In this document: positions 22,385 to 48,024 of the stretch, piece after piece
Layout of the letters: each line of letters opens with the position of its first letter
Position numbering within the stretch: the stretch's first letter is position 1
NCBI GenBank assembly: GCA_036275295.1
Contig: DASUEB010000025.1
Location: 34,332-98,331 of the forward strand
Reading direction: 5' to 3'
From: Luteibaculaceae bacterium
GTDB taxonomy: Bacteria > Bacteroidota > Bacteroidia > Flavobacteriales_D > Luteibaculaceae
DNA length: 64,000 nt
Position numbers and translations under genes: made by a program
Notes under the pieces: model-generated
What the model was told of the DNA's origin: nothing
What the model saw: only the letters and a program-made list of their open reading frames with translations
Database searches by the model: none

Positions 22385-22441
22385 GGTAAGAGAGATAAAA
22401 ACAATTACTTGATAGCTTAATCTGGTAATTTTAGGTGGATG

Positions 22442-22902
22442 AGTTTCACTGGCGCGGCTGTTATAAGCCGCTTCGGCGAACAAGGCCCGCCATCGCTTCT
22501 CGACTGCGTCTCATAGCTTCGTTAAACCCAAATCTGTTATCTTACAATACATGTAACACCCCTTGCAGTGCGGACCTGTCCGCCGTAGCCCGTGGTTAGG
22601 AGTTTAAACGAGTTTTGATATGACAAGTTCACCTTCGCGGCTTGAAAAGCCGCTTCGGCGAGCAAGGCTCACCTTCGCTTCTCGACTGCGTCTCGAAGCT
22701 TCGGCGAGCAAGGCCCGGCTTCGCTTCTCGATTGCGTCTCGAAGCTTCGTTAAACCCAAATCTGTTATCTTACAATACATGTAATACCCCTTGCAGTGCG
22801 GACGTGTCCGCCGTAGCCCGTGGTTAGGAGTTTAAATGAGGCTTGGTATCATAAGCCCGCCTTCGCTTCTCGACTGCGTCTCGAAGCTTCGGCGGGCGAA
22901 GG
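22442..22902. repeat. about 2.3 tandem copies of a 185-230 bp structured non-coding element
   Basis: Copy 1 spans 22442-22612, copy 2 spans 22625-22840 (with an internal 46-bp duplication), and a partial copy spans 22851-22902. The motif TCGCTTCTCGAYTGCGTCTC..AGCTTCG starts at 22493, 22675, 22721 and 22863. Confidence 0.85.
22855..22897 (-). other. long imperfect hairpin 5 nt downstream of the tRNA-Ser 3' end
   Basis: GCCCGCC (22855-22861) pairs with GGCGGGC (22891-22897). There is an inner CTTC/GAAG stem and a 13-nt loop. Only a short T-run follows. Confidence 0.5.
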
Positions 22903-22990
22903 CGGAGAGAGGGGGATTCGAACCCCCGATACCCTTTTGAGGTATACACACTTTCCAGGCGTGCTCCTTCAACCACTCGGACACCTCTCC
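22903..22990 (-). tRNA. tRNA-Ser (anticodon GGA)
   Basis: Folded by hand: acceptor GGAGAGG/TCTCTCC, 3-bp D stem, anticodon loop CTGGAAA, long variable arm ATACC...GGTAT, T arm GGGGG-TTCGAAT-CCCCC, discriminator G. CCA is not encoded. Confidence 0.9.
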
Positions 22991-34331: not shown

Positions 34332-34556
34332 ATGAAACCAATCATTGCCCTATCCCTAATCCTGGCCGTGGCCAGTTCATGTGTGGTAAGAACTCCTCGC
34401 CCCGTGATTGTAAAACAGAAAAAATCAACGGTTGTCGTTCAACCCGCAAAAGACAATGGCCTTCACAAAGGTCACTACAAAAAGGGTGGCCCTAAAGGCA
34501 ACAACGGAAACGGAAACGGAAACGGAAACGGAAAAAATAAAGGCCCGAAAAAATAA
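34332..34556 (+). CDS. small basic lipoprotein with (Asn-Gly)5 repeat
   Basis: MKPIIALSLILAVASSC lipobox. Contains the perfect hexanucleotide repeat (AACGGA)x5. Confidence 0.5.
   Translation: MKPIIALSLILAVASSCVVRTPRPVIVKQKKSTVVVQPAKDNGLHKGHYKKGGPKGNNGNGNGNGNGKNKGPKK
34503..34532 (+). repeat. (AACGGA)x5 perfect in-frame hexanucleotide repeat
   Basis: Read directly from the sequence; encodes NGNGNGNGNG. Confidence 0.95.
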
Positions 34557-40398: not shown

Positions 40399-41832
40399 TT
40401 AGTAGCTCAATAAAAATTCAGTGAACAGTCGCACCCCTACTCCAGTACCTCCCGAAGTGCGGTAGCTGCTTGCCTTGTGAAGGTACGACGGACCAGCAAT
40501 ATCCAGATGAACAAAGGGCGATTTGGTAAAGTGCGCCAAAAATTTTCCGGCGGTGATAGCCCCTGCTAAATCAGAACCGAGGTTTTTGATATCAGCGACT
40601 TCCGACTTGATTTCATCGTCGTACTCGCTCCAGAACGGAAATTCCACTAAGCGCTCGTAACAGCCCTCGCCCACTGATTTCAACTTGGCAAAAACGTCGG
40701 GCGAAGCGGTTCCCATGGCTACCGAACCGTAGGTGCCAATGGCTCTTAAAGCGGCACCGGTTAGGGTAGCTGCATTGATAACCAACTCGGGTTTAAACTG
40801 CTCGCTGTAGGCCAAGGCATCTGCTAGTATCATGCGTCCTTCCGCATCGGTGTTGAGCACCTCAACGTGGAGTCCGTTCATCATTTTTACGACATCGCCA
40901 GGAGCATAGGCCGCACCGCCTGGGCGGTTGTCGGTGGCAGGGATCAATCCAATGACGTAAACATCGGCATTTAATTTCGCCAATGCGTAAAGGGCAGCTG
41001 CCACGGCAGCGCCTCCCGCCATATCGCTCTTCATGTAGTCCATAGAATGCGGGGTAGGTTTCAAGCTCAAACCACCTGTGTCGTAGACTACGCCTTTGCC
41101 CACCAGCACAACGGGTTTTTTGTTGCGGGCTTTCTTAGGTTTCCACTCAATGCGAGTAAAAGTGGGCGGTTCAACGCTGCCCTGATTTACCGCAAGCAGT
41201 CCACCCATTTTCATTTTTTCTATTTCTTTTTTATCGAATACCTGCACATCGCATCCTGCCGACTCGCAGGCCTCTTTCATTGATGAGGCAAAAACCCTAG
41301 CGGTTAAATACGAATTGGGTTCGTTGACCCAGTTGCGAGCCATAAACGTCGCCTCGACTAGAGTTTGTAGCTTCTGAAGTGACGTTTTATTCATGCCCTG
41401 CTCTGAGAAGAGCACCTCGGCGAGGCGGTAGGTGTGTTTCTTGGTGTCGGTTTTGTACTTCAGAAATTCATAAGTCGATAGGAGCAGTCCCTCAGCAAAG
41501 GCATATGCCAAGGCCGTGTTTGAAATCTGAATCCCCAGCGAAGTAATGCGATGGGTTTTCGCGTGCTGGTAGACGGTATGGCCCAGTTTTCGGTAGGATT
41601 CCAGGCCCTGACTGTCGGTTCCGGTTTTTTTCTGCAGAATGATAAATACGTGCTGATTGATCCGATTCAACGCGATCAGGGTTTCATCTGATTTCACGCG
41701 CTCTTTCACGTAATCTTGCTCCACCTTACTCAGATGAAGACGGTCCAAATCCTTGTCGCTGGCTAGATTGATCACCAGGTGCTTGTCGGGCGCAAGACTT
41801 TTATGGATACTTAGCTTGGCTAAATTCATCAT
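40399..41832 (-). CDS. pepA: leucyl aminopeptidase (M17)
   Basis: VGKGVVYDTGGLSLKP and NTDAEGRMILADAL motifs. Confidence 0.9.
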   Translation of the reverse strand: MMNLAKLSIHKSLAPDKHLVINLASDKDLDRLHLSKVEQDYVKERVKSDETLIALNRINQHVFIILQKKTGTDSQGLESYRKLGHTVYQHAKTHRITSLGIQISNTALAYAFAEGLLLSTYEFLKYKTDTKKHTYRLAEVLFSEQGMNKTSLQKLQTLVEATFMARNWVNEPNSYLTARVFASSMKEACESAGCDVQVFDKKEIEKMKMGGLLAVNQGSVEPPTFTRIEWKPKKARNKKPVVLVGKGVVYDTGGLSLKPTPHSMDYMKSDMAGGAAVAAALYALAKLNADVYVIGLIPATDNRPGGAAYAPGDVVKMMNGLHVEVLNTDAEGRMILADALAYSEQFKPELVINAATLTGAALRAIGTYGSVAMGTASPDVFAKLKSVGEGCYERLVEFPFWSEYDDEIKSEVADIKNLGSDLAGAITAGKFLAHFTKSPFVHLDIAGPSYLHKASSYRTSGGTGVGVRLFTEFLLSY

Positions 41833-42075
41833 ATTGGGATTAGGGGCTAAAAGTAACAGATAATCCTAAATTATGCCGTACGAATCCACCCCGAGGTAGA
41901 ACAAACTTCGCAACCATGCCAACGCGAATGAATTCAGAAGTTTTCGAGGACGGCGTGACAAAAGAAGTCATTCCTCAAAAAACGCGCATCGACCGAGGCA
42001 ATGGGAACAAATGACTGGCGCCGGCTTCTCCATTTGTCTAGTTCATTGGTAAACCCAACCCTAAAAAACCGTAAT

Positions 42076-42095
42076 TTAGAAGATTTATCTTCTAA
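42076..42095. other. 20-bp palindrome TTAGAAGAT-TT-ATCTTCTAA
   Basis: Perfect 9-bp arms with a 2-nt centre, 73 nt upstream of the heptamer array. Confidence 0.4.
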
Positions 42096-42167
42096 GTGTT
42101 TCCGAACTCCTTCGCTAGCCCTAGCTCGGTAACTGAGACTTATGGAAATCTAACGAAGACATCATAT

Positions 42168-42303
42168 CACCTGTCACGTGTCACCTATCACCCATCACGT
42201 TTCACCCATCACGTTTCACCTATCACCTTTCACGTATCACGTATCACCTATCACGTGTCACTATTAACTATTAACTACTAACTATTAACTATTAACTACT
42301 ATC
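42168..42303 (+). repeat. 7-nt-phased tandem array: 13 x CAC(C/G)(T/C)NT, then 6 x TAYTAAC
   Basis: Units counted by hand with no register break: CACCTGT CACGTGT CACCTAT CACCCAT CACGTTT CACCCAT CACGTTT CACCTAT CACCTTT CACGTAT CACGTAT CACCTAT CACGTGT CAC TATTAAC TATTAAC TACTAAC TATTAAC TATTAAC TACTATC. Confidence 0.95.
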
Positions 42304-42326
42304 TTTAAGCCTTTGTTGAGGAAGAC

Positions 42327-44936
42327 ATGAGGTATATATTCGGCGTTCTGTTCGCCTGTTTCAGTTATTTACAAACCTTTGCTACCCATATCGAAGCGGG
42401 TGAAATTACCTATCGACAACTAAATGGCTTTACCTACGAGGCAACACTCGTGTTGTACGTGCTTCGCTCATCTAATGTGCCTGGAAACTTAGTCGACGGA
42501 TTCAACTGGGGCGATGGAACGGTTCAAACGCTGACCTTGTCGAGCGAAATTTTGCTTTCAGACAACCTTACCCAGAAGCGAACCTACATTGCCACGCACA
42601 CCTACCCCGGACCTTCGCGATACCTCTTGAGTCTCAATGAGCAGTTTCGCATCAACAGCATTCAAAATATCAACAACGGAAACGGAGTCAATGTCGCTTT
42701 TTACCTCGAGTCGGAGCTCATCATCAACCCATTCAATCCGGTGGGATCGGCAGTCAAAAACAACAGTCCCATACTGATCAATCCACCACTCGACAAGGCG
42801 TGTATATTTCAGCCATTTGAGCACAATCCTGCCGCTTACGACATCGATGGCGACAGCCTTTCCTATCAGTTGGTGCCTTGCCGGGGCCAAGGCGGTGTAC
42901 CCATCGTGTATGTAGATCCCGATCAAGTAAATCCCGGGGCGAACAATCAAATATCCATAGATCCGGTAACGGGAACGGTAAGCTGGACCAGCGCACAGCT
43001 TGCGGGGATATACAACATTGCCATTCTGATCACGGAGTGGCGCGGGGGGCAAAAAGTGGGATCGGTGCTTCGCGATATGCAAATTAAGGTGGTGAATTGC
43101 GCAAATAGGCCCCCATTTATTCGCGATTACGGCGACACCTGCGTGGCTGTCAACAGCAACATCAACAAGCTCTTCGAAGCCAATGATGGCAACAATTTCA
43201 ACGACAACATCAGCATCACCGCATCGGGAGAAACCTTTGAACGAGTTACCCTCCTCTCCTCTCTAAGTAATGCCGTTGTGGGTAACCCTGCCTCTGTGGT
43301 TTACAATTGGATCCCAACCTGCGCTGAGGCTCGCCGCCAGCCCTACGAGGTGGTACTCAAAGCAACCGATGATGGCAACCTACCACTGGCCGACTACGGC
43401 ACTTGGCGCATCAGTGTCGTATTGCCTCCGGTCACCGTTTATCCTCCCCAAGTACAAGGTGGGCGCGTTCAAATCAATTGGGACGCAAGTATCTGCAACA
43501 ATGTAGATGGATACCGGGTTTATCGATCCAGCTGCACGGCAGGGGCTCCCAACACCTCTTGCAGTTTCGCGGCTGATCCTCGCTTTCAGCTTGTAGGAAC
43601 AGTTCAGGGCAGCGGTCAGCTGAAATACATCGACACTACGTTGACCTTCTCTACCGAGGCCTGTTACATCGTCGTTCCGTTTCGCGACAATGGGGCAGAG
43701 GGAATTGCAAGTGTGCCGGTGTGCGTTGAATCGCCCTTTCAAGAAATATGCATGGTGTCGGTTGGAAGAACCGATGCTGTCAACGGTTTGGACACCATCA
43801 AATGGAACAAACCCATCGATATTGACACCTTGACACAATATACAGGTCCTTACCAATACCGCGTTTATCGGAGCCCAGGCATAACAAAAGCCACCAATTT
43901 GGTTTACCAAACACCCATTTCAATCGAATTTTACAAAACCGATACGGTATTCATCGACTCAGCACTGAATACCATTGATAGCGCTTATACCTATTTGGTT
44001 GAGCTTTATTCTGGAAACGCACTGGTAGGAAACAGCTCCAATGCGTCGTCCATTTTCCTGCGCGCCGCAGGAAGCGACCGAAAAATCAGTTTAACTTGGA
44101 CCTCCAAAGTGCCATGGACCGAGACGGGTGCTACCGTCCAACGGTTTGATACGGTCAGCCAAACATGGGTCAACTTGGTGAGCAACTTAAACGACACGAT
44201 GTATGCCGACACATCGGCTCAAAATGGATTTACCTACTGTTACCGCATCGTCAGGGGAACCCGCTTTTGTGATCCCGCCCGCACATCATCACTGATGAAT
44301 TTTTCACAAGAGGTTTGCGCCACTGCCGTTGATCAATCTGCCCCTCCCATTCCCGTTCTCAGCGCTACACCGTTTTGCAAAGACGGTTATGCCGAGCTTA
44401 CTTGGGCGGTTAGCTCGAGCATTGCCAACGCCGACCTGAAATCGTTTATCATCTTCTACAAACCCAGCTTAACCGGCGATTTCACGCCAATCGCCACCCT
44501 TGACAAAAACCAGAGGTTCTTTTTTTATACCAACAACAACAAATCGATTACCGGCTGTTATGCCATTGGTACAGAAGACACCTTGGGGAATACAAGCGGT
44601 CCGGGACCTCGTATTTGCTTGGAAGATTGTCCCGAATACCGTTTGCCCAACGTTTTTACGCCCAATGGAGATGGCGTAAACGACGTTTTTACGCCGTTCC
44701 CGTACAACGGAGTAACCGGCATCGAATTGCAGATTTTCAACCGATGGGGCAAGATGGTATTTCAAACCACCAATCCAGATATACTGTGGGATGGTCGTGT
44801 AGAAGGCGCCAATGCCTCTGATGGTGTATATTTTTACGTCGGGACCGTATTCTTTGGTTCCAGCGCGGGTCCAAAACCTGTCGAATTAAAAGGTACCGTC
44901 ACTCTCTTTACCTCCCAATCACAACGAAGCGAATAA
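42327..44936 (+). CDS. large cell-surface protein with T9SS type-B (gliding-motility-associated) C-terminal sorting domain
   Basis: Signal peptide. C-terminus ...LPNVFTPNGDGVNDVFTP...IFNRWGKMVFQT...WDGR...DGVYFYV is the type-B CTD signature. Confidence 0.85.
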   Translation: MRYIFGVLFACFSYLQTFATHIEAGEITYRQLNGFTYEATLVLYVLRSSNVPGNLVDGFNWGDGTVQTLTLSSEILLSDNLTQKRTYIATHTYPGPSRYLLSLNEQFRINSIQNINNGNGVNVAFYLESELIINPFNPVGSAVKNNSPILINPPLDKACIFQPFEHNPAAYDIDGDSLSYQLVPCRGQGGVPIVYVDPDQVNPGANNQISIDPVTGTVSWTSAQLAGIYNIAILITEWRGGQKVGSVLRDMQIKVVNCANRPPFIRDYGDTCVAVNSNINKLFEANDGNNFNDNISITASGETFERVTLLSSLSNAVVGNPASVVYNWIPTCAEARRQPYEVVLKATDDGNLPLADYGTWRISVVLPPVTVYPPQVQGGRVQINWDASICNNVDGYRVYRSSCTAGAPNTSCSFAADPRFQLVGTVQGSGQLKYIDTTLTFSTEACYIVVPFRDNGAEGIASVPVCVESPFQEICMVSVGRTDAVNGLDTIKWNKPIDIDTLTQYTGPYQYRVYRSPGITKATNLVYQTPISIEFYKTDTVFIDSALNTIDSAYTYLVELYSGNALVGNSSNASSIFLRAAGSDRKISLTWTSKVPWTETGATVQRFDTVSQTWVNLVSNLNDTMYADTSAQNGFTYCYRIVRGTRFCDPARTSSLMNFSQEVCATAVDQSAPPIPVLSATPFCKDGYAELTWAVSSSIANADLKSFIIFYKPSLTGDFTPIATLDKNQRFFFYTNNNKSITGCYAIGTEDTLGNTSGPGPRICLEDCPEYRLPNVFTPNGDGVNDVFTPFPYNGVTGIELQIFNRWGKMVFQTTNPDILWDGRVEGANASDGVYFYVGTVFFGSSAGPKPVELKGTVTLFTSQSQRSE

Positions 44937-45535
44937 TGTTTACTGGAATTATTGAATCTCTTGGGGTACTGGTTGACCTCCAGCATGAAGCGAGCAACCT
45001 ACACCTCACTTTCGAATCCAACATCAGCAACGAACTCAAAATTGACCAAAGCGTAGCGCACAATGGCGTTTGTCTCACCGTGGTGCAATGTGGCAACGGC
45101 AGACATACCGTAACAGCCATCGACGAAACCCTTCAAAAAACCAACTTAGGGCAACTCAAACTTGGGCATCGGGTGAATCTCGAGCGCTGTTTGGTTGCAG
45201 GCGGTCGACTGGACGGACATATCGTTCAGGGCCATGTAGACCAAATTGGCAAGTGTGTGAATGTGGTCGATCAAAACGGGTCGTGGCGTTATGATTTTGA
45301 ATACGATCCAACGCTTGGCAACATCACCGTTGAGAAAGGATCGATCTGTGTAAACGGCGTTTCGTTGACGGTTGTAAACTCAGTACCCAACGGATTTTCA
45401 GTAGCCATAATTCCCTACACATGGGAAAACACCGGCTTTGGACAGCTGCACGCAGGCGACTCGGTCAACCTAGAATTCGACATCGTAGGCAAATACATCA
45501 AACGACTGCATCAAGGGTATGGATGGAAGAGTTGA
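44936..45535 (+). CDS. ribE: riboflavin synthase
   Basis: MFTGIIESLG N-terminus and two lumazine-binding repeats (SVAHNGVCLTV / SICVNGVSLTV). The ATG overlaps the upstream TAA (TAATG). Confidence 0.9.
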   Translation: MFTGIIESLGVLVDLQHEASNLHLTFESNISNELKIDQSVAHNGVCLTVVQCGNGRHTVTAIDETLQKTNLGQLKLGHRVNLERCLVAGGRLDGHIVQGHVDQIGKCVNVVDQNGSWRYDFEYDPTLGNITVEKGSICVNGVSLTVVNSVPNGFSVAIIPYTWENTGFGQLHAGDSVNLEFDIVGKYIKRLHQGYGWKS

Positions 45536-45654
45536 GGGTTTGGGGTTTGGAGTTTAGGGTTGAGGGTTGAGAGTTGAGGGTTGAGGGTTGAGGGTTTAGG
45601 GTTGAGAGTTTAGGGTTTAGGGATTAAGCGTTACAAACACGTATCACGTTTCAC
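45529..45654 (+). repeat. 7-nt-phased G-rich array (14 x GRGTTKA, telomere-like), running in register into CAC heptamers
   Basis: GAGTTGA GGGTTTG GGGTTTG GAGTTTA GGGTTGA GGGTTGA GAGTTGA GGGTTGA GGGTTGA GGGTTTA GGGTTGA GAGTTTA GGGTTTA GGGATTA AGCGTTA CAAACAC GTATCAC GTTTCAC. The first unit contains the ribE stop codon. Confidence 0.95.
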
Positions 45655-45692
45655 CAGCCGTAGCCTTGACCTCGCGCCATAACCTGGACAAA

Positions 45693-45727
45693 CTCGGTTA
45701 CCGAAATCGACAAGCTTAGTCACCGAG
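45693..45727. other. hairpin in the unique spacer between heptamer arrays
   Basis: CTCGGTTAC / GTCACCGAG (8 of 9 bp), 17-nt loop, flanked by CCAGCC...GGCTGG. No U-run, so a weak terminator candidate. Confidence 0.35.
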
Positions 45728-45740
45728 CGAAGGCTGGTTT

Positions 45741-45803
45741 CACGCATCACATATCACGTTTCACGCATCACGTATCACGTATCACGTTTCACGCATCACC
45801 TCT
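45741..45803 (+). repeat. 7-nt-phased array, 9 x CAC(G/A/C)NNT
   Basis: CACGCAT CACATAT CACGTTT CACGCAT CACGTAT CACGTAT CACGTTT CACGCAT CACCTCT. The last unit touches the metF stop codon (45803-45805). Confidence 0.95.
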
Positions 45804-46756
45804 CAAAGCACCTCTTTTACAATTTGCCGCACCTCATCGGCCTTGCCCATGGTGTAAAAATGCAAACAGGGCACTCCGCGTTCAATGAGCTCCTTGGTTT
45901 GCTGAATTCCCCAGGCAATACCCACTTCTTTTACCTCGGCATCGGTGGTGCAGCGCATCAACTGATCGGCGAGCGCATCTGGGAAGTCGACGTGGAAGGT
46001 CTTAGGGATAAACTGAATGTGCTTTAACGTTGTGATGACCTTGATGCCGGGAATAATAGGCACATTAATCCCTGCTTTCCTGCATTGGTCGACATAGTCG
46101 AAATATTTCTGGTTGTCGTAAAACAGTTGTGTAACCACGTATTCTGCCCCACACTCGACTTTCTTGTGGAGATTGGTGAGGTCAGTTTTTAGGTTGAGGG
46201 CCTCAAAGTGTTTTTCCGGATATCCTGCGGCTCCAATACAGAAGTTGGTGGGCGCATTGACGTATTTCTCATCGTGCAAAAATTTTCCGCTGTTCATGTT
46301 GTTGATTTGCTCAATCAACTCCCATGCGTAGCGATGGCCACCTGGGCTGGGCACAAAGGTGCTTTCGGTCTTAACGGGATCGCCGCGCAGCGCCAGGATA
46401 TTGTCAATACCCAGGAATTGCAATTCGATCAACGCGTTTTCCGTCTCCTCCTTGCTAAATCCGCCGCAAATCAAATGCGGAACGGTATCGATATGGAATT
46501 TATTCTGAATAGCTGCACAAATGCTTACCGTTCCTGGTCTTTTTCGAATGGCATATTTTTGCAAATAGCCTCCAGGCAGCGTTTTATAGAGATACTCCTC
46601 GCGGTGATAAGTAACGTTGATAAACTTCGGATCGAACTCCAGCAAAGGTTCTATTCCGTCGAAAATGGTCTGAATACTCGCCCCTTTCAACGGTGGCAAC
46701 AGTTCAAACGAGAAAAGTGTTTTTTTAGCCGCTTTTAAATGGTCAATTACCTTCAA
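45803..46756 (-). CDS. metF: methylenetetrahydrofolate reductase
   Basis: (M)KVIDHLKAAKKTLFSFELLPPLKG N-terminus and MetF-like TIM-barrel sequence. TTG start codon. Confidence 0.9.
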   Translation of the reverse strand: MKVIDHLKAAKKTLFSFELLPPLKGASIQTIFDGIEPLLEFDPKFINVTYHREEYLYKTLPGGYLQKYAIRKRPGTVSICAAIQNKFHIDTVPHLICGGFSKEETENALIELQFLGIDNILALRGDPVKTESTFVPSPGGHRYAWELIEQINNMNSGKFLHDEKYVNAPTNFCIGAAGYPEKHFEALNLKTDLTNLHKKVECGAEYVVTQLFYDNQKYFDYVDQCRKAGINVPIIPGIKVITTLKHIQFIPKTFHVDFPDALADQLMRCTTDAEVKEVGIAWGIQQTKELIERGVPCLHFYTMGKADEVRQIVKEVL

Positions 46757-46789
46757 AACTTACAGGTTTTATCGTGATAAACAAGGCCA

Positions 46790-46797
46790 CAAAGGTA
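46790..46797 (-). promoter_or_regulatory. -7 promoter box TACCTTTG for metF
   Basis: Exact TAnnTTTG on the minus strand, 33 nt upstream of TTG 46756. Confidence 0.45.
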
Positions 46798-47162
46798 GTG
46801 GATTAGTCGGTAATATCGCCCCGTCGCCTCGTTCCTATCTCTCCAACTTTAAACCACCCAACAAGACCTTTAGTTATCCATCACTCAAAACCTCGGATTT
46901 GCTGATCTATCGGTTTGTCCAGCATCCAACGGCTCTGGGAAACTTTTTAGTCCGAGGGTTGTCTATATGCCTAAGGTGAGAAATCAGCAACGGCGATCCA
47001 AAATTGCAGAAATGGAACCCTTGACCAAGGGCCACCGCGTCACACTCTCATCCCCTTTTTGAGCTCCCTTCCACTCAAGTGGCTATGGCATAGTCAGGGT
47101 TATTGACCCCCGAGTGTTGACAATAGCAGGTCTTATATTGTCGTTAAGGCCTTTGGTAGGCG

Positions 47163-47170
47163 TAATTTTG
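47163..47170 (+). promoter_or_regulatory. -7 promoter box TAATTTTG for the 277-aa gene
   Basis: Exact TAnnTTTG, 20 nt upstream of ATG 47191. A TTG sits 22 nt further upstream (47138-47140). Confidence 0.5.
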
Positions 47171-47190
47171 ATCAATAAACTTGAGGTGTT

Positions 47191-48024
47191 ATGGCATCGT
47201 TCAAAAGCCTGGCCGAAACGGCACAGCAAATAGCTTTCTACATAGACCAGCTCAATGCGGGCAAACTGTCGGCCATGGCCATCGACGACCTGCTCAACGA
47301 GGTGCGTGAATTGGAGGCAAGGTTAATCATTCTTCGCTACAAAGCATATGAGCAACAAGCGATTGAAGAGACCGCCCCTGAGCCAGCACCCGCCGAGGCT
47401 GAAAACACATGGACAACCTTTTCCATCGATACAGCTGAACCCGAAACCTCCACTGAACCGCAATTTTCGGTGGGCGAGTTAAACCCAGAGGTCGTATTAC
47501 CAGAACCTGAAAGTGCTTTCGAACAACCCATTCCCTTTGGCATCCAAGAACTAACGCCTGAAATAGAGGCGGAAGAGCCTGCCACCACCGCATTTCACGA
47601 TGTGATCCAAGAGGCTATGGAAAGGGCTCCCGAGCATCACGAAGATCTGAATGACGCTATCAAAAAAGCGGCGTCTTACCGACAACAAGTGGTACAGCAA
47701 ACCCTAATGATTGAGCCGGTCTTGGAAACCTCGCCACCCGCGCAAAAATCAGGCCAAGCAACCCTTGCCAATCAACTGCAGCGCAGCGGTATTTCTGACC
47801 TCAACAAAGTCATTGCCATTGCCGATAAATACAACTTTATCGTTCACTTGTTTGATTCAAACAACGAAGCGTATACCGCCGCCATCAATAAAATAAATCA
47901 CTGTGGATCATGGTCAGCTGCCAAAGACTACATGGATCAACAGCTGGCACCCACGTACCGATGGAATCGGGAATCGGCGACCGTTCAGCAATTCACTGAC
48001 CTCGTAGAGCGCATGTACGCATGA
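47191..48024 (+). CDS. hypothetical protein with acidic Pro/Glu-rich central linker
   Basis: 277 aa, helical N- and C-terminal domains. 4-nt overlap with the downstream M28 gene. Confidence 0.6.
   Translation: MASFKSLAETAQQIAFYIDQLNAGKLSAMAIDDLLNEVRELEARLIILRYKAYEQQAIEETAPEPAPAEAENTWTTFSIDTAEPETSTEPQFSVGELNPEVVLPEPESAFEQPIPFGIQELTPEIEAEEPATTAFHDVIQEAMERAPEHHEDLNDAIKKAASYRQQVVQQTLMIEPVLETSPPAQKSGQATLANQLQRSGISDLNKVIAIADKYNFIVHLFDSNNEAYTAAINKINHCGSWSAAKDYMDQQLAPTYRWNRESATVQQFTDLVERMYA

Follow-up and report, generated by a model that had tools for sequence, protein, structure and literature searches.

Heptamers of the STRR type (short tandemly repeated repetitive sequences) were reportedly described in cyanobacteria by Mazel et al. 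in 1990. More generally, heptamers are the commonest class among the long simple sequence repeats (SSRs) with units of 5–11 nt, which are mostly non-coding and have been attributed to polymerase slippage (Mrazek 2007, as cited in PMC4679880 and PMC4692102). Two G-rich families of such repeats, GGGAATC in Xanthomonas and GGGGA(C/T)T in Nostoc, form G-quadruplexes (G4s) in vitro, in a K+-dependent manner for the related GGGNATC (Rehm et al. 2015, PMC4692102). These SSRs occur on the coding strand at 0–50 bp after a stop codon, overlaps included, show a preference for four units, vary between relatives and neighbour genes of unrelated and mostly housekeeping functions, and a regulatory role was not identified for them (PMC4692102). 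In a similar line, mixed heptamer arrays (TAACTGA and others) have been found in intergenic regions of several Bacteroidetes, cyanobacteria and Beggiatoaceae, where they are missing from close relatives and show indels of 7 nt (MacGregor 2015, PMC4679880). Here we analyse a stretch of 64,000 nucleotides from a Luteibaculaceae bacterium (contig DASUEB010000025.1; hereafter the window), in which an array of GGGTTKA-type heptamers, named array C, occupies part of the spacer between the convergent genes ribE and metF. The original prediction saw in it a telomere-like tract with G4 potential that could act as a structural barrier, as an RNA stabiliser or as a contingency repeat. Our analysis indicates that array C is a hypervariable compound heptanucleotide SSR, most likely built and remodelled by slippage, and that its G4 competence is probably a by-product.

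Array C (45529–45626, plus strand) comprises 14 heptamers of the form GRGTTKA, with 48% G and no C, as observed both by direct reading in phase and with Tandem Repeats Finder (TRF; period 7, 13.1 copies, score 107), which confirmed the 14 units initially proposed. In order, units 1–7 read GAGTTGA, GGGTTTG, GGGTTTG, GAGTTTA, GGGTTGA, GGGTTGA and GAGTTGA, and units 8–14 GGGTTGA, GGGTTGA, GGGTTTA, GGGTTGA, GAGTTTA, GGGTTTA and GGGATTA. The tract had been drawn as far as 45654, and its last 28 nt (45627–45654, plus strand) proved to be four in-phase transition units, AGCGTTA, CAAACAC, GTATCAC and GTTTCAC, through which array C grades into a TCAC-type array. A two-unit pattern, GGGTTGAGGGTTGA, allowing up to two mismatches, was matched eight times against 0.49 expected, a number reached in none of 100 shuffles. 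Moreover, the plus strand is devoid of C over 116 nt (45513–45628), the runner-up C-free run in the window being 46 nt long. The array sits between the stop codons of ribE (45535) and metF (45803), and only unit 1 overlaps coding sequence: as anticipated, the TGA of this GAGTTGA unit (45533–45535, plus strand) is the ribE stop and closes the open reading frame (ORF) at 44936–45535. Both ends of the array in the assembly are supported by independent Logan contigs, L001 reaching up to 45599 and L206 starting from 45625.

The original prediction had called for a comparison of copy number among strains, and once run it revealed a variable tract. Alleles were taken from Logan contigs of three samples encoding an identical MetF, one from the sample of the window (L206), which agrees with it, and two from other samples (L207 and L208). 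Compared with the window, metF (954 bases) has 7 substitutions in L207 and 6 in L208, all of them synonymous (~99.3% identity), with MetF proteins 100% identical. In their intergenic arrays, however, the order of the units is different, and the TCACG units of the adjoining TCACGYA array (array D) number 10 in L207 and 11 in L208, compared with 12 in the window once an insert of 82 nt, missing in both, is removed. Twelve units of array C are covered by L208, of which units 1–6 read GGGTTGA, GGGTTTG, GGGTTGA, GGGTTTA, AAGTTTA and GGGTTTG, and units 7–12 GGGTTTA, GGGTTTA, AAGTTTA, GGGTTTA, GGGATTA and GGGATTA; the composition thus goes from mostly GGGTTGA/GAGTTGA in the window to GGGTTTA/GGGTTTG/AAGTTTA in L208. 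The junction between array C and the TCAC transition is kept in L207 and L208, and in both of them the spacer downstream of metF consists of continuous heptamers up to the contig ends. Since metF is ~99.3% identical and yet arrays C and D differ, the tract behaves as a hypermutable simple sequence repeat, and the arrays are hypermutable relative to the flanking DNA. With its tandem excess, non-coding site and polymorphism between close strains, array C is a heptanucleotide long SSR. A search of the JGI metagenomes with a metF 3′-end pattern gave no match, and exact matches to RibE, the type IX secretion system (T9SS) protein encoded upstream of it and PepA came exclusively from the window's own sample.

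Regarding the quadruplex, ten GGG runs at a spacing of 4 nt had been proposed. The ten runs (G≥3, including one GGGG) are indeed present, but the spacing of 4 nt occurs just between neighbouring units, and the GAG units interrupt the series. Units 8–11 (45578–45601, plus strand) follow the G3N1-7x4 rule, as originally noted, and constitute the sole canonical quadruplex motif on both strands of the window. At the level of sequence, the G4 competence of array C is therefore real. A single motif per 64 kb is nevertheless the chance level: dinucleotide shuffles carry 0.96 on average, and 59% of them at least one. When folded with the G-quadruplex energies of ViennaRNA, the RNA of array C alone is predicted to reach −16.3 kcal/mol with one 3-layer G4 versus −13.9 without it. 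For the intergenic RNA in full, the most stable fold calculated with the same energies leaves the G4 unused.

Other structures were looked for in the spacer as well. In agreement with the original prediction, no hairpin followed by a U tract (Rho-independent terminator) was found in 45536–45802, while good terminators are present elsewhere in the window. Folding of the intergenic region on either strand was no better than that of shuffled sequence (z +0.89 and −0.84), values that also give no significance to a large hairpin in which arrays C and D would pair at long range, and no Rfam family was detected in 41500–47300 at E≤1. The spacer shows instead a marked strand asymmetry. The minus-strand RNA of 45513–45628 contains zero G over 116 nt and ~48% C over the array, and it is predicted to be unstructured, and the plus strand of array D has 22 C versus 8 G in 64 nt. 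A composition rule for rut (Rho utilisation) sites is established for Rho; about 70–80 nt or more of C-rich, G-poor and unstructured RNA, as it prescribes, are found in the minus-strand RNA of 45513–45628, a correspondence of composition only.

How general such repeats are was approached through a scan of public genomes with a 21-nt GGGTTGA-type pattern, GGGTTGAGGGTTKAGGGTTKA, which recovered at least 120 stretches. Among the matches listed, most come from Planctomycetota, Verrucomicrobiota and Bacteroidota, accompanied by Acidobacteriota, Gemmatimonadota, Chloroflexota, Armatimonadota, cyanobacteria and a few Proteobacteria and Actinobacteria, so that the unit family reaches at least ten phyla. 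At these listed loci, tandem repeats are dominated by period 7 (243 TRF rows), the GGGTTGA arrays adjoin 81 other heptamer unit types, many of them one mismatch away from GGGTTGA, and a large number of arrays are just 3–4 units long. The flanking genes are functionally diverse (TonB receptor, GH127, ATP synthase, ABC ATPase, MazG and AMP-ligase), and all classes of gene orientation are represented, including divergent and co-directional pairs. About 60 of the listed arrays lie inside ORFs with the C-rich strand being read, in which case three units encode STLNPQP, and some of these are genuine in-frame linker inserts.

Positional statistics were obtained for 158 loci with gene calls based on a crude longest-ORF method, many of the ORFs being confirmed as genes by Pfam spot checks. 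Intergenic arrays are balanced in orientation overall, with 51 G-strand-sense and 50 C-strand-sense cases. Nevertheless, 33 of the 51 G-sense arrays are found within 50 nt of the upstream stop codon in comparison with 10 of the 50 C-sense ones (Fisher P=7e-6), and 14 of the 51 touch or overlap that stop. Of the 20 G-sense arrays located no more than 10 nt from a stop codon, 16 either provide that stop with their own first TGA or begin their first unit directly after it. A random scatter without positional bias, which according to the original prediction would speak against a function, was thus not seen. Perfect G-tract runs in intergenic arrays, for lengths from 3 to 8, number 29, 33, 6, 5, 6 and 2, respectively. 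When it was asked in non-GGGTTGA arrays whether the stop-bearing strand or the G-rich strand is the positional cause, the trends ran the same way and did not separate the two, and stop-bearing units without G runs showed a weaker tendency of the same sign as the rule (P about 0.07–0.09).

Several particular loci in this collection are worth describing. Three IMG/VR contigs (L131 11313–11340, L155 1752–1779 and L156 7242–7269) carry the same 521-aa ORF ending in ...AAAHEEG*, the final GGT TGA of which is provided by unit 1 of a GGGTTGA array; this array has four units in all three contigs. In-frame (TCAACCC)n arrays occur inside real genes from other phyla (L084 4488–4529, L029 4481–4508, L044 4244–4264 and L112 3257–3284), their hosts including a GH2 beta-galactosidase linker, Mfd and HypF, and also between a FAD-oxidoreductase and a GDSL lipase; slippage of a heptamer in the coding cases would shift the reading frame. 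A G-rich array is often followed directly by an array of complementary units (L101 6511–6683, L097 3337–3472, L099 883–1096, L117 5711–5796, L008 149–361 and L046 6780–6957), and such inverted pairs could form long imperfect hairpins; arrays C and D of the window are not complementary in this way.

When these data are set against the described systems, the closest resemblance is with the repeats of Rehm et al. As in those SSRs, array C has a unit of 7 nt with a tract of three or four G, is intergenic with at least four consecutive tracts, overlaps the stop codon with its G strand as the coding strand, differs in length and sequence between close relatives, and is surrounded by functionally unrelated genes. 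It obeys, therefore, the published stop-codon positional rule. On the other hand, its unit is GGGTTKA rather than GGGNATC or GGGGAYT, its host belongs to the Bacteroidota (Luteibaculaceae), and its capacity to form a G4 is predicted from sequence. Unlike the units of Rehm et al., moreover, GGGTTKA contains a TGA and can therefore supply a stop codon. Array C is thus a new unit family and a new phylum within the known G4-capable heptanucleotide SSRs. With the arrays of MacGregor, the locus shares different heptamer arrays lying side by side in one intergenic region and different in close relatives, indels in steps of 7 nt and the breaking of short-read assemblies at these points, although the unit sequences are other ones. 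The class of Mrazek, in turn, is a statistical one lacking unit-level or positional description, with which array C has in common the dominant unit length and the non-coding site. Neither the GGGTTGA dimer string nor its cross-phylum stop-codon rule was found in the searchable literature; a search on heptamers in bacteria of the Planctomycetes–Verrucomicrobia–Chlamydiae group gave nothing relevant, and one with the bare 7-mer returned only primer noise.

Array C is not isolated in the window. TRF detected four period-7 arrays (A–D) of three unrelated unit types and no others, and autocorrelation over the whole window showed period-7 tracts at three places only, all arrays being confined to the two intergenic regions that flank the T9SS-protein/ribE pair. 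Array A (42165–42261, plus strand) has ~14 YRTCACS units, which share their family and orientation with those of array D. It is located upstream of the T9SS gene, in an intergenic region that is divergent. In phase with it follows array B (42260–42308, plus strand), with 6–7 ACTATTA/ACTACTA units, which ends 18 nt before the ATG of that gene; in a Logan contig of the same sample (L001) the order of its units differs at positions 42271 and 42278. Array D (45737–45800, plus strand), with 9 NNTCACG units, ends at a distance of 2 nt from the stop codon of metF and reads CGTGAxx on the minus strand, with one TGA per unit. On the sense strand of each of the two convergent genes there is a TGA in every unit of the adjacent array. 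Arrays A, B and D (TCACS, ACTATTA and TCACGYA) are free of G runs, so that the organisation of these arrays is not due to G4 potential. As a separate observation, arrays A and B would be better candidates than array C for a copy-number-dependent tuning of a promoter.

The 82-nt insert (45655–45736), with CAGCC...GGCTG ends, splits one TCACGTT unit directly after TCAC. Its excision in silico restores a perfect TCACGTT unit and leaves no target duplication, which points to the insertion of a small element; the segment suggests a small hairpin-ended mobile element that would insert into heptamer arrays. Its predicted fold is modest (z −1.4 to −1.5). A multi-copy miniature inverted-repeat transposable element was also considered and rejected, as in the window it gave only a weak match to 42117–42146 (E 0.5), and no exact match to the insert was found in the JGI metagenomes. 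Small dispersed repeats are known from Nostoc heptamer arrays, and the insert is reminiscent of them; it also recalls elements of the IS200/IS605 type or those resembling repetitive extragenic palindromic (REP) sequences.

The T9SS-protein gene (42327–44936, plus strand), the adhesin of the original prediction, encodes 869 aa that include a type IX secretion sorting domain (CHU_C), and its stop is overlapped by the start of ribE (44936–45535, plus strand; riboflavin synthase, Lum_binding). Convergent with ribE is metF (45803–46756, minus strand), for a methylenetetrahydrofolate reductase. The three proteins match HEX4886690–92 (Luteibaculaceae, Flavobacteriales) exactly, the clusters of RibE, the T9SS protein and MetF contain one sequence each, and the nearest RibE homologue is 71% identical. 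The best named RibE matches (~70% identity) belong to Sphingobacteriales (Daejeonella, Mucilaginibacter and Pedobacter) and not to Flavobacteriales. A horizontal origin of the T9SS/ribE module was also considered and not retained: GC content and third-position GC (GC3) are ordinary, and a tetranucleotide distance at the 96th percentile is not decisive.

The C-terminus of RibE offers a hint on the history of the array. It is ~5 residues longer than in its homologues (...KRLHQGYGWKS* compared with ...ARLMKR*), and the extra codons fall within the 116-nt C-free stretch in phase with array C, where two possible decayed units, GGGTATG and GATGGAA (45515–45528, plus strand), would encode part of the additional tail GYGWKS. 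Because the extra codons are C-free and in phase with the array, array C may have overrun the native ribE stop codon. In the mechanism that we favour, repeated slippage of the 7-nt units during replication, point mutations in single units and re-amplification of the mutants would build and remodel array C. Together with the TCACGYA array, it forms nearly the whole spacer of the convergent ribE and metF; in the strain of the window, the 82-nt element would additionally have been inserted into the TCACGYA array. Such an array could adjoin the 3′ end of ribE or extend over it with the protein still being terminated, since within 21 nt the G-rich strand offers a TGA to each of the three frames, and unit 1 would supply the stop. 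The complement of the unit, TCAACCC, has no stop in any of the three frames. Any effect of array C would most likely concern 3′-end formation of both convergent transcripts, each of which would meet a G-rich array first and then a C-rich, G-poor one. In the case of read-through from metF, the RNA would lack G for 116 nt and contain ~48% C over the array, a composition suited to Rho loading.

Such an effect could be a dedicated one, and two readings of this kind were weighed. A G4 in the non-template DNA or in the RNA of the ribE 3′ untranslated region might work as a hairpin-free terminator or pause site, as a replication barrier, or as a block to 3′ exonucleases. It would agree with the G3N4 x4 match at 45578–45601, the gain of ~2.4 kcal/mol predicted for the RNA of array C alone, the lack of a hairpin terminator in 45536–45802, the clustering of G-sense arrays at stop codons, the shoulder at four G tracts in intergenic arrays, the presence of a run of at least four tracts also in L208, and the K+-dependent G4s formed in vitro by the related GGGNATC heptamers under the same positional rule (PMC4692102). 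But the motif count is that expected by chance, the fold predicted for the full intergenic RNA dispenses with the G4, the three sister arrays, which share these two intergenic regions, are without G runs, both orientations are equally frequent overall, neither the exact units nor the position of the G4 run is kept between strains, stop-bearing units without G runs tend in the same direction, if more weakly, and Rehm et al. identified no regulatory role for their repeats (PMC4692102). The other reading takes the spacer as a bidirectional Rho-dependent insulator, where the opposite asymmetry of the two arrays would expose a rut-like RNA on each transcript and Rho would stop antisense read-through into the neighbour. 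The G-free minus-strand RNA, the C excess of array D, the lack of significant secondary structure on either strand and the missing intrinsic terminator are what would be expected of it, and all of this is an inference from composition. In addition, across the listed genomes the arrays appear in every class of gene orientation, and they are hypervariable and often of 3–4 units, too short for a rut site. Given sister arrays free of G runs, a balance of orientations, the lack of unit conservation and a predominance of short arrays, we leave the G4 a small chance of being the function of array C, and the Rho insulator a slim one.

Other proposals are less probable still. Repeats of 7 bp in the promoters of the Haemophilus influenzae genes hmw1A (PMC8262952) and hmw2A tune the transcription of a phase-variable adhesin. 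In this regard, a contingency locus, where changes in unit number would adjust how strongly the T9SS surface protein/ribE operon is expressed, finds an echo in the hypervariable arrays flanking a secreted surface-protein gene, a feature shared with hmw1A, and in arrays A and B just upstream of the start of that gene. Array C, however, is located 3′ of the operon, ~3.2 kb from its promoter, and beyond a stop codon with TGA in every frame, therefore the gain or loss of units cannot switch RibE; the contingency repeat of the original prediction does not hold for this gene. As neighbour genes across the listed genomes are also mostly housekeeping ones (also PMC4692102), and the likeness with hmw1A suits arrays A and B better, we consider a phase-variation role of array C very unlikely. 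An array of sites for a heptamer-specific DNA- or RNA-binding protein, with a nucleoid, regulatory or post-transcriptional task, follows what MacGregor proposed for the TAACTGA repeats (PMC4679880). The recurrence of the unit across phyla, its moderate over-representation against permuted controls and the positional rule relative to genes would fit, yet unit types vary enormously, even inside a single intergenic region, units are not kept between strains, and no candidate protein was identified, so that binding appears highly improbable. Finally, the predicted identity with the plant telomere repeat is correct to the letter, as TTTAGGG occurs four times in array C, and like (TTTAGGG)n the array is G4-capable; short-read contigs also break within the arrays, as an assembly artefact would have it. 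Unlike in a telomere, however, the tract has an internal place, flanked by ribE and metF in a bacterial chromosomal context, has the tandem TTTAGGG pair only once among mixed units that are mostly GGGTTGA/GAGTTGA, and is one of four heptamer arrays. Moreover, it was recovered in the metagenome-assembled genome and also, independently, in Logan contigs of three samples, and arrays of this sort are common inside ordinary bacterial contigs. The telomere-like character is a coincidence of letters, and a telomere relic or artefact is almost certainly a wrong explanation.

The preferred slippage-built SSR has its own difficulties. Neutral slippage does not obviously predict the positional rule (33/51 versus 10/50), nor the drop of G-tract runs after four (29, 33 and 6 for runs of 3, 4 and 5). 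The GGGAATC repeats follow the same positional rule with no stop on either strand (PMC4692102), and being stop-free and yet stop-proximal they show that trapping by stop codons cannot be the whole explanation. In viral contigs, (GGGTTGA)3 occurs 38 times versus 10, 4, 14 and 18 for four composition-matched permutations, that is, 2–10 times more commonly. The alleles of the window and L208 are both C-free and GGG-rich, and each contains four or more G tracts in a row at least once, a retained character that could reflect selection. The host sequence covered is the 64-kb window, to which the figures on the number of arrays in the host refer. A further reading is that G-rich heptamer arrays beginning at stop codons, with the GGGTTGA family in at least ten phyla and other units in Xanthomonas and Nostoc, might be a convergently evolved 3′-end module devoid of hairpins, acting via G4s and/or pairs of G-rich and Rho-loading C-rich arrays, to which we also concede just a slim chance. 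If true, such a module would stand in for intrinsic terminators, above all in Bacteroidota, Planctomycetota and Verrucomicrobiota, and selection on this function would have left its signatures in the positional rule and in the preference for four G tracts.

Two further repeats of the window complete the picture. At 22440–22900, a 634-nt convergent intergenic region beside a tRNA-Ser gene (22901–22990, minus strand) contains a 46-nt motif, GCTTCGGCGAGCAAGGCCCACCTTCGCTTCTCGACTGCGTCTCGAA, which is in tandem at 22652–22749 and seems to recur nearby, and a segment of ~90 nt is apparently duplicated, as judged by eye, at about 22521–22610 and 22749–22838. At 34503–34534, a perfect (AACGGA)x5.3 forms an in-frame coding hexamer SSR within a small ORF (about 34332–34556), whose product would have a lipoprotein-like signal, MKPIIALSLILAVASSC, and a tail of (Asn-Gly)n encoded by the repeat.

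Altogether, the result at the ribE–metF locus is mostly deflationary, as it favours a microsatellite and not a telomere-like or dedicated regulatory element. In practical terms, heptamer arrays break short-read assemblies and may create or extend the ends of ORFs. On the other hand, GGGTTKA adds a cross-phylum unit family to the poorly understood heptamer repeats of bacteria, and the unexplained stop-codon/coding-strand rule of G-rich heptamer arrays has been reproduced in an independent data set. The residual novelty lies in this positional rule across phyla, for which neutral slippage is not a full explanation. The ribE–metF spacer, with two arrays of opposite strand bias and several natural alleles, offers a natural test case for effects on the 3′ ends of transcripts.

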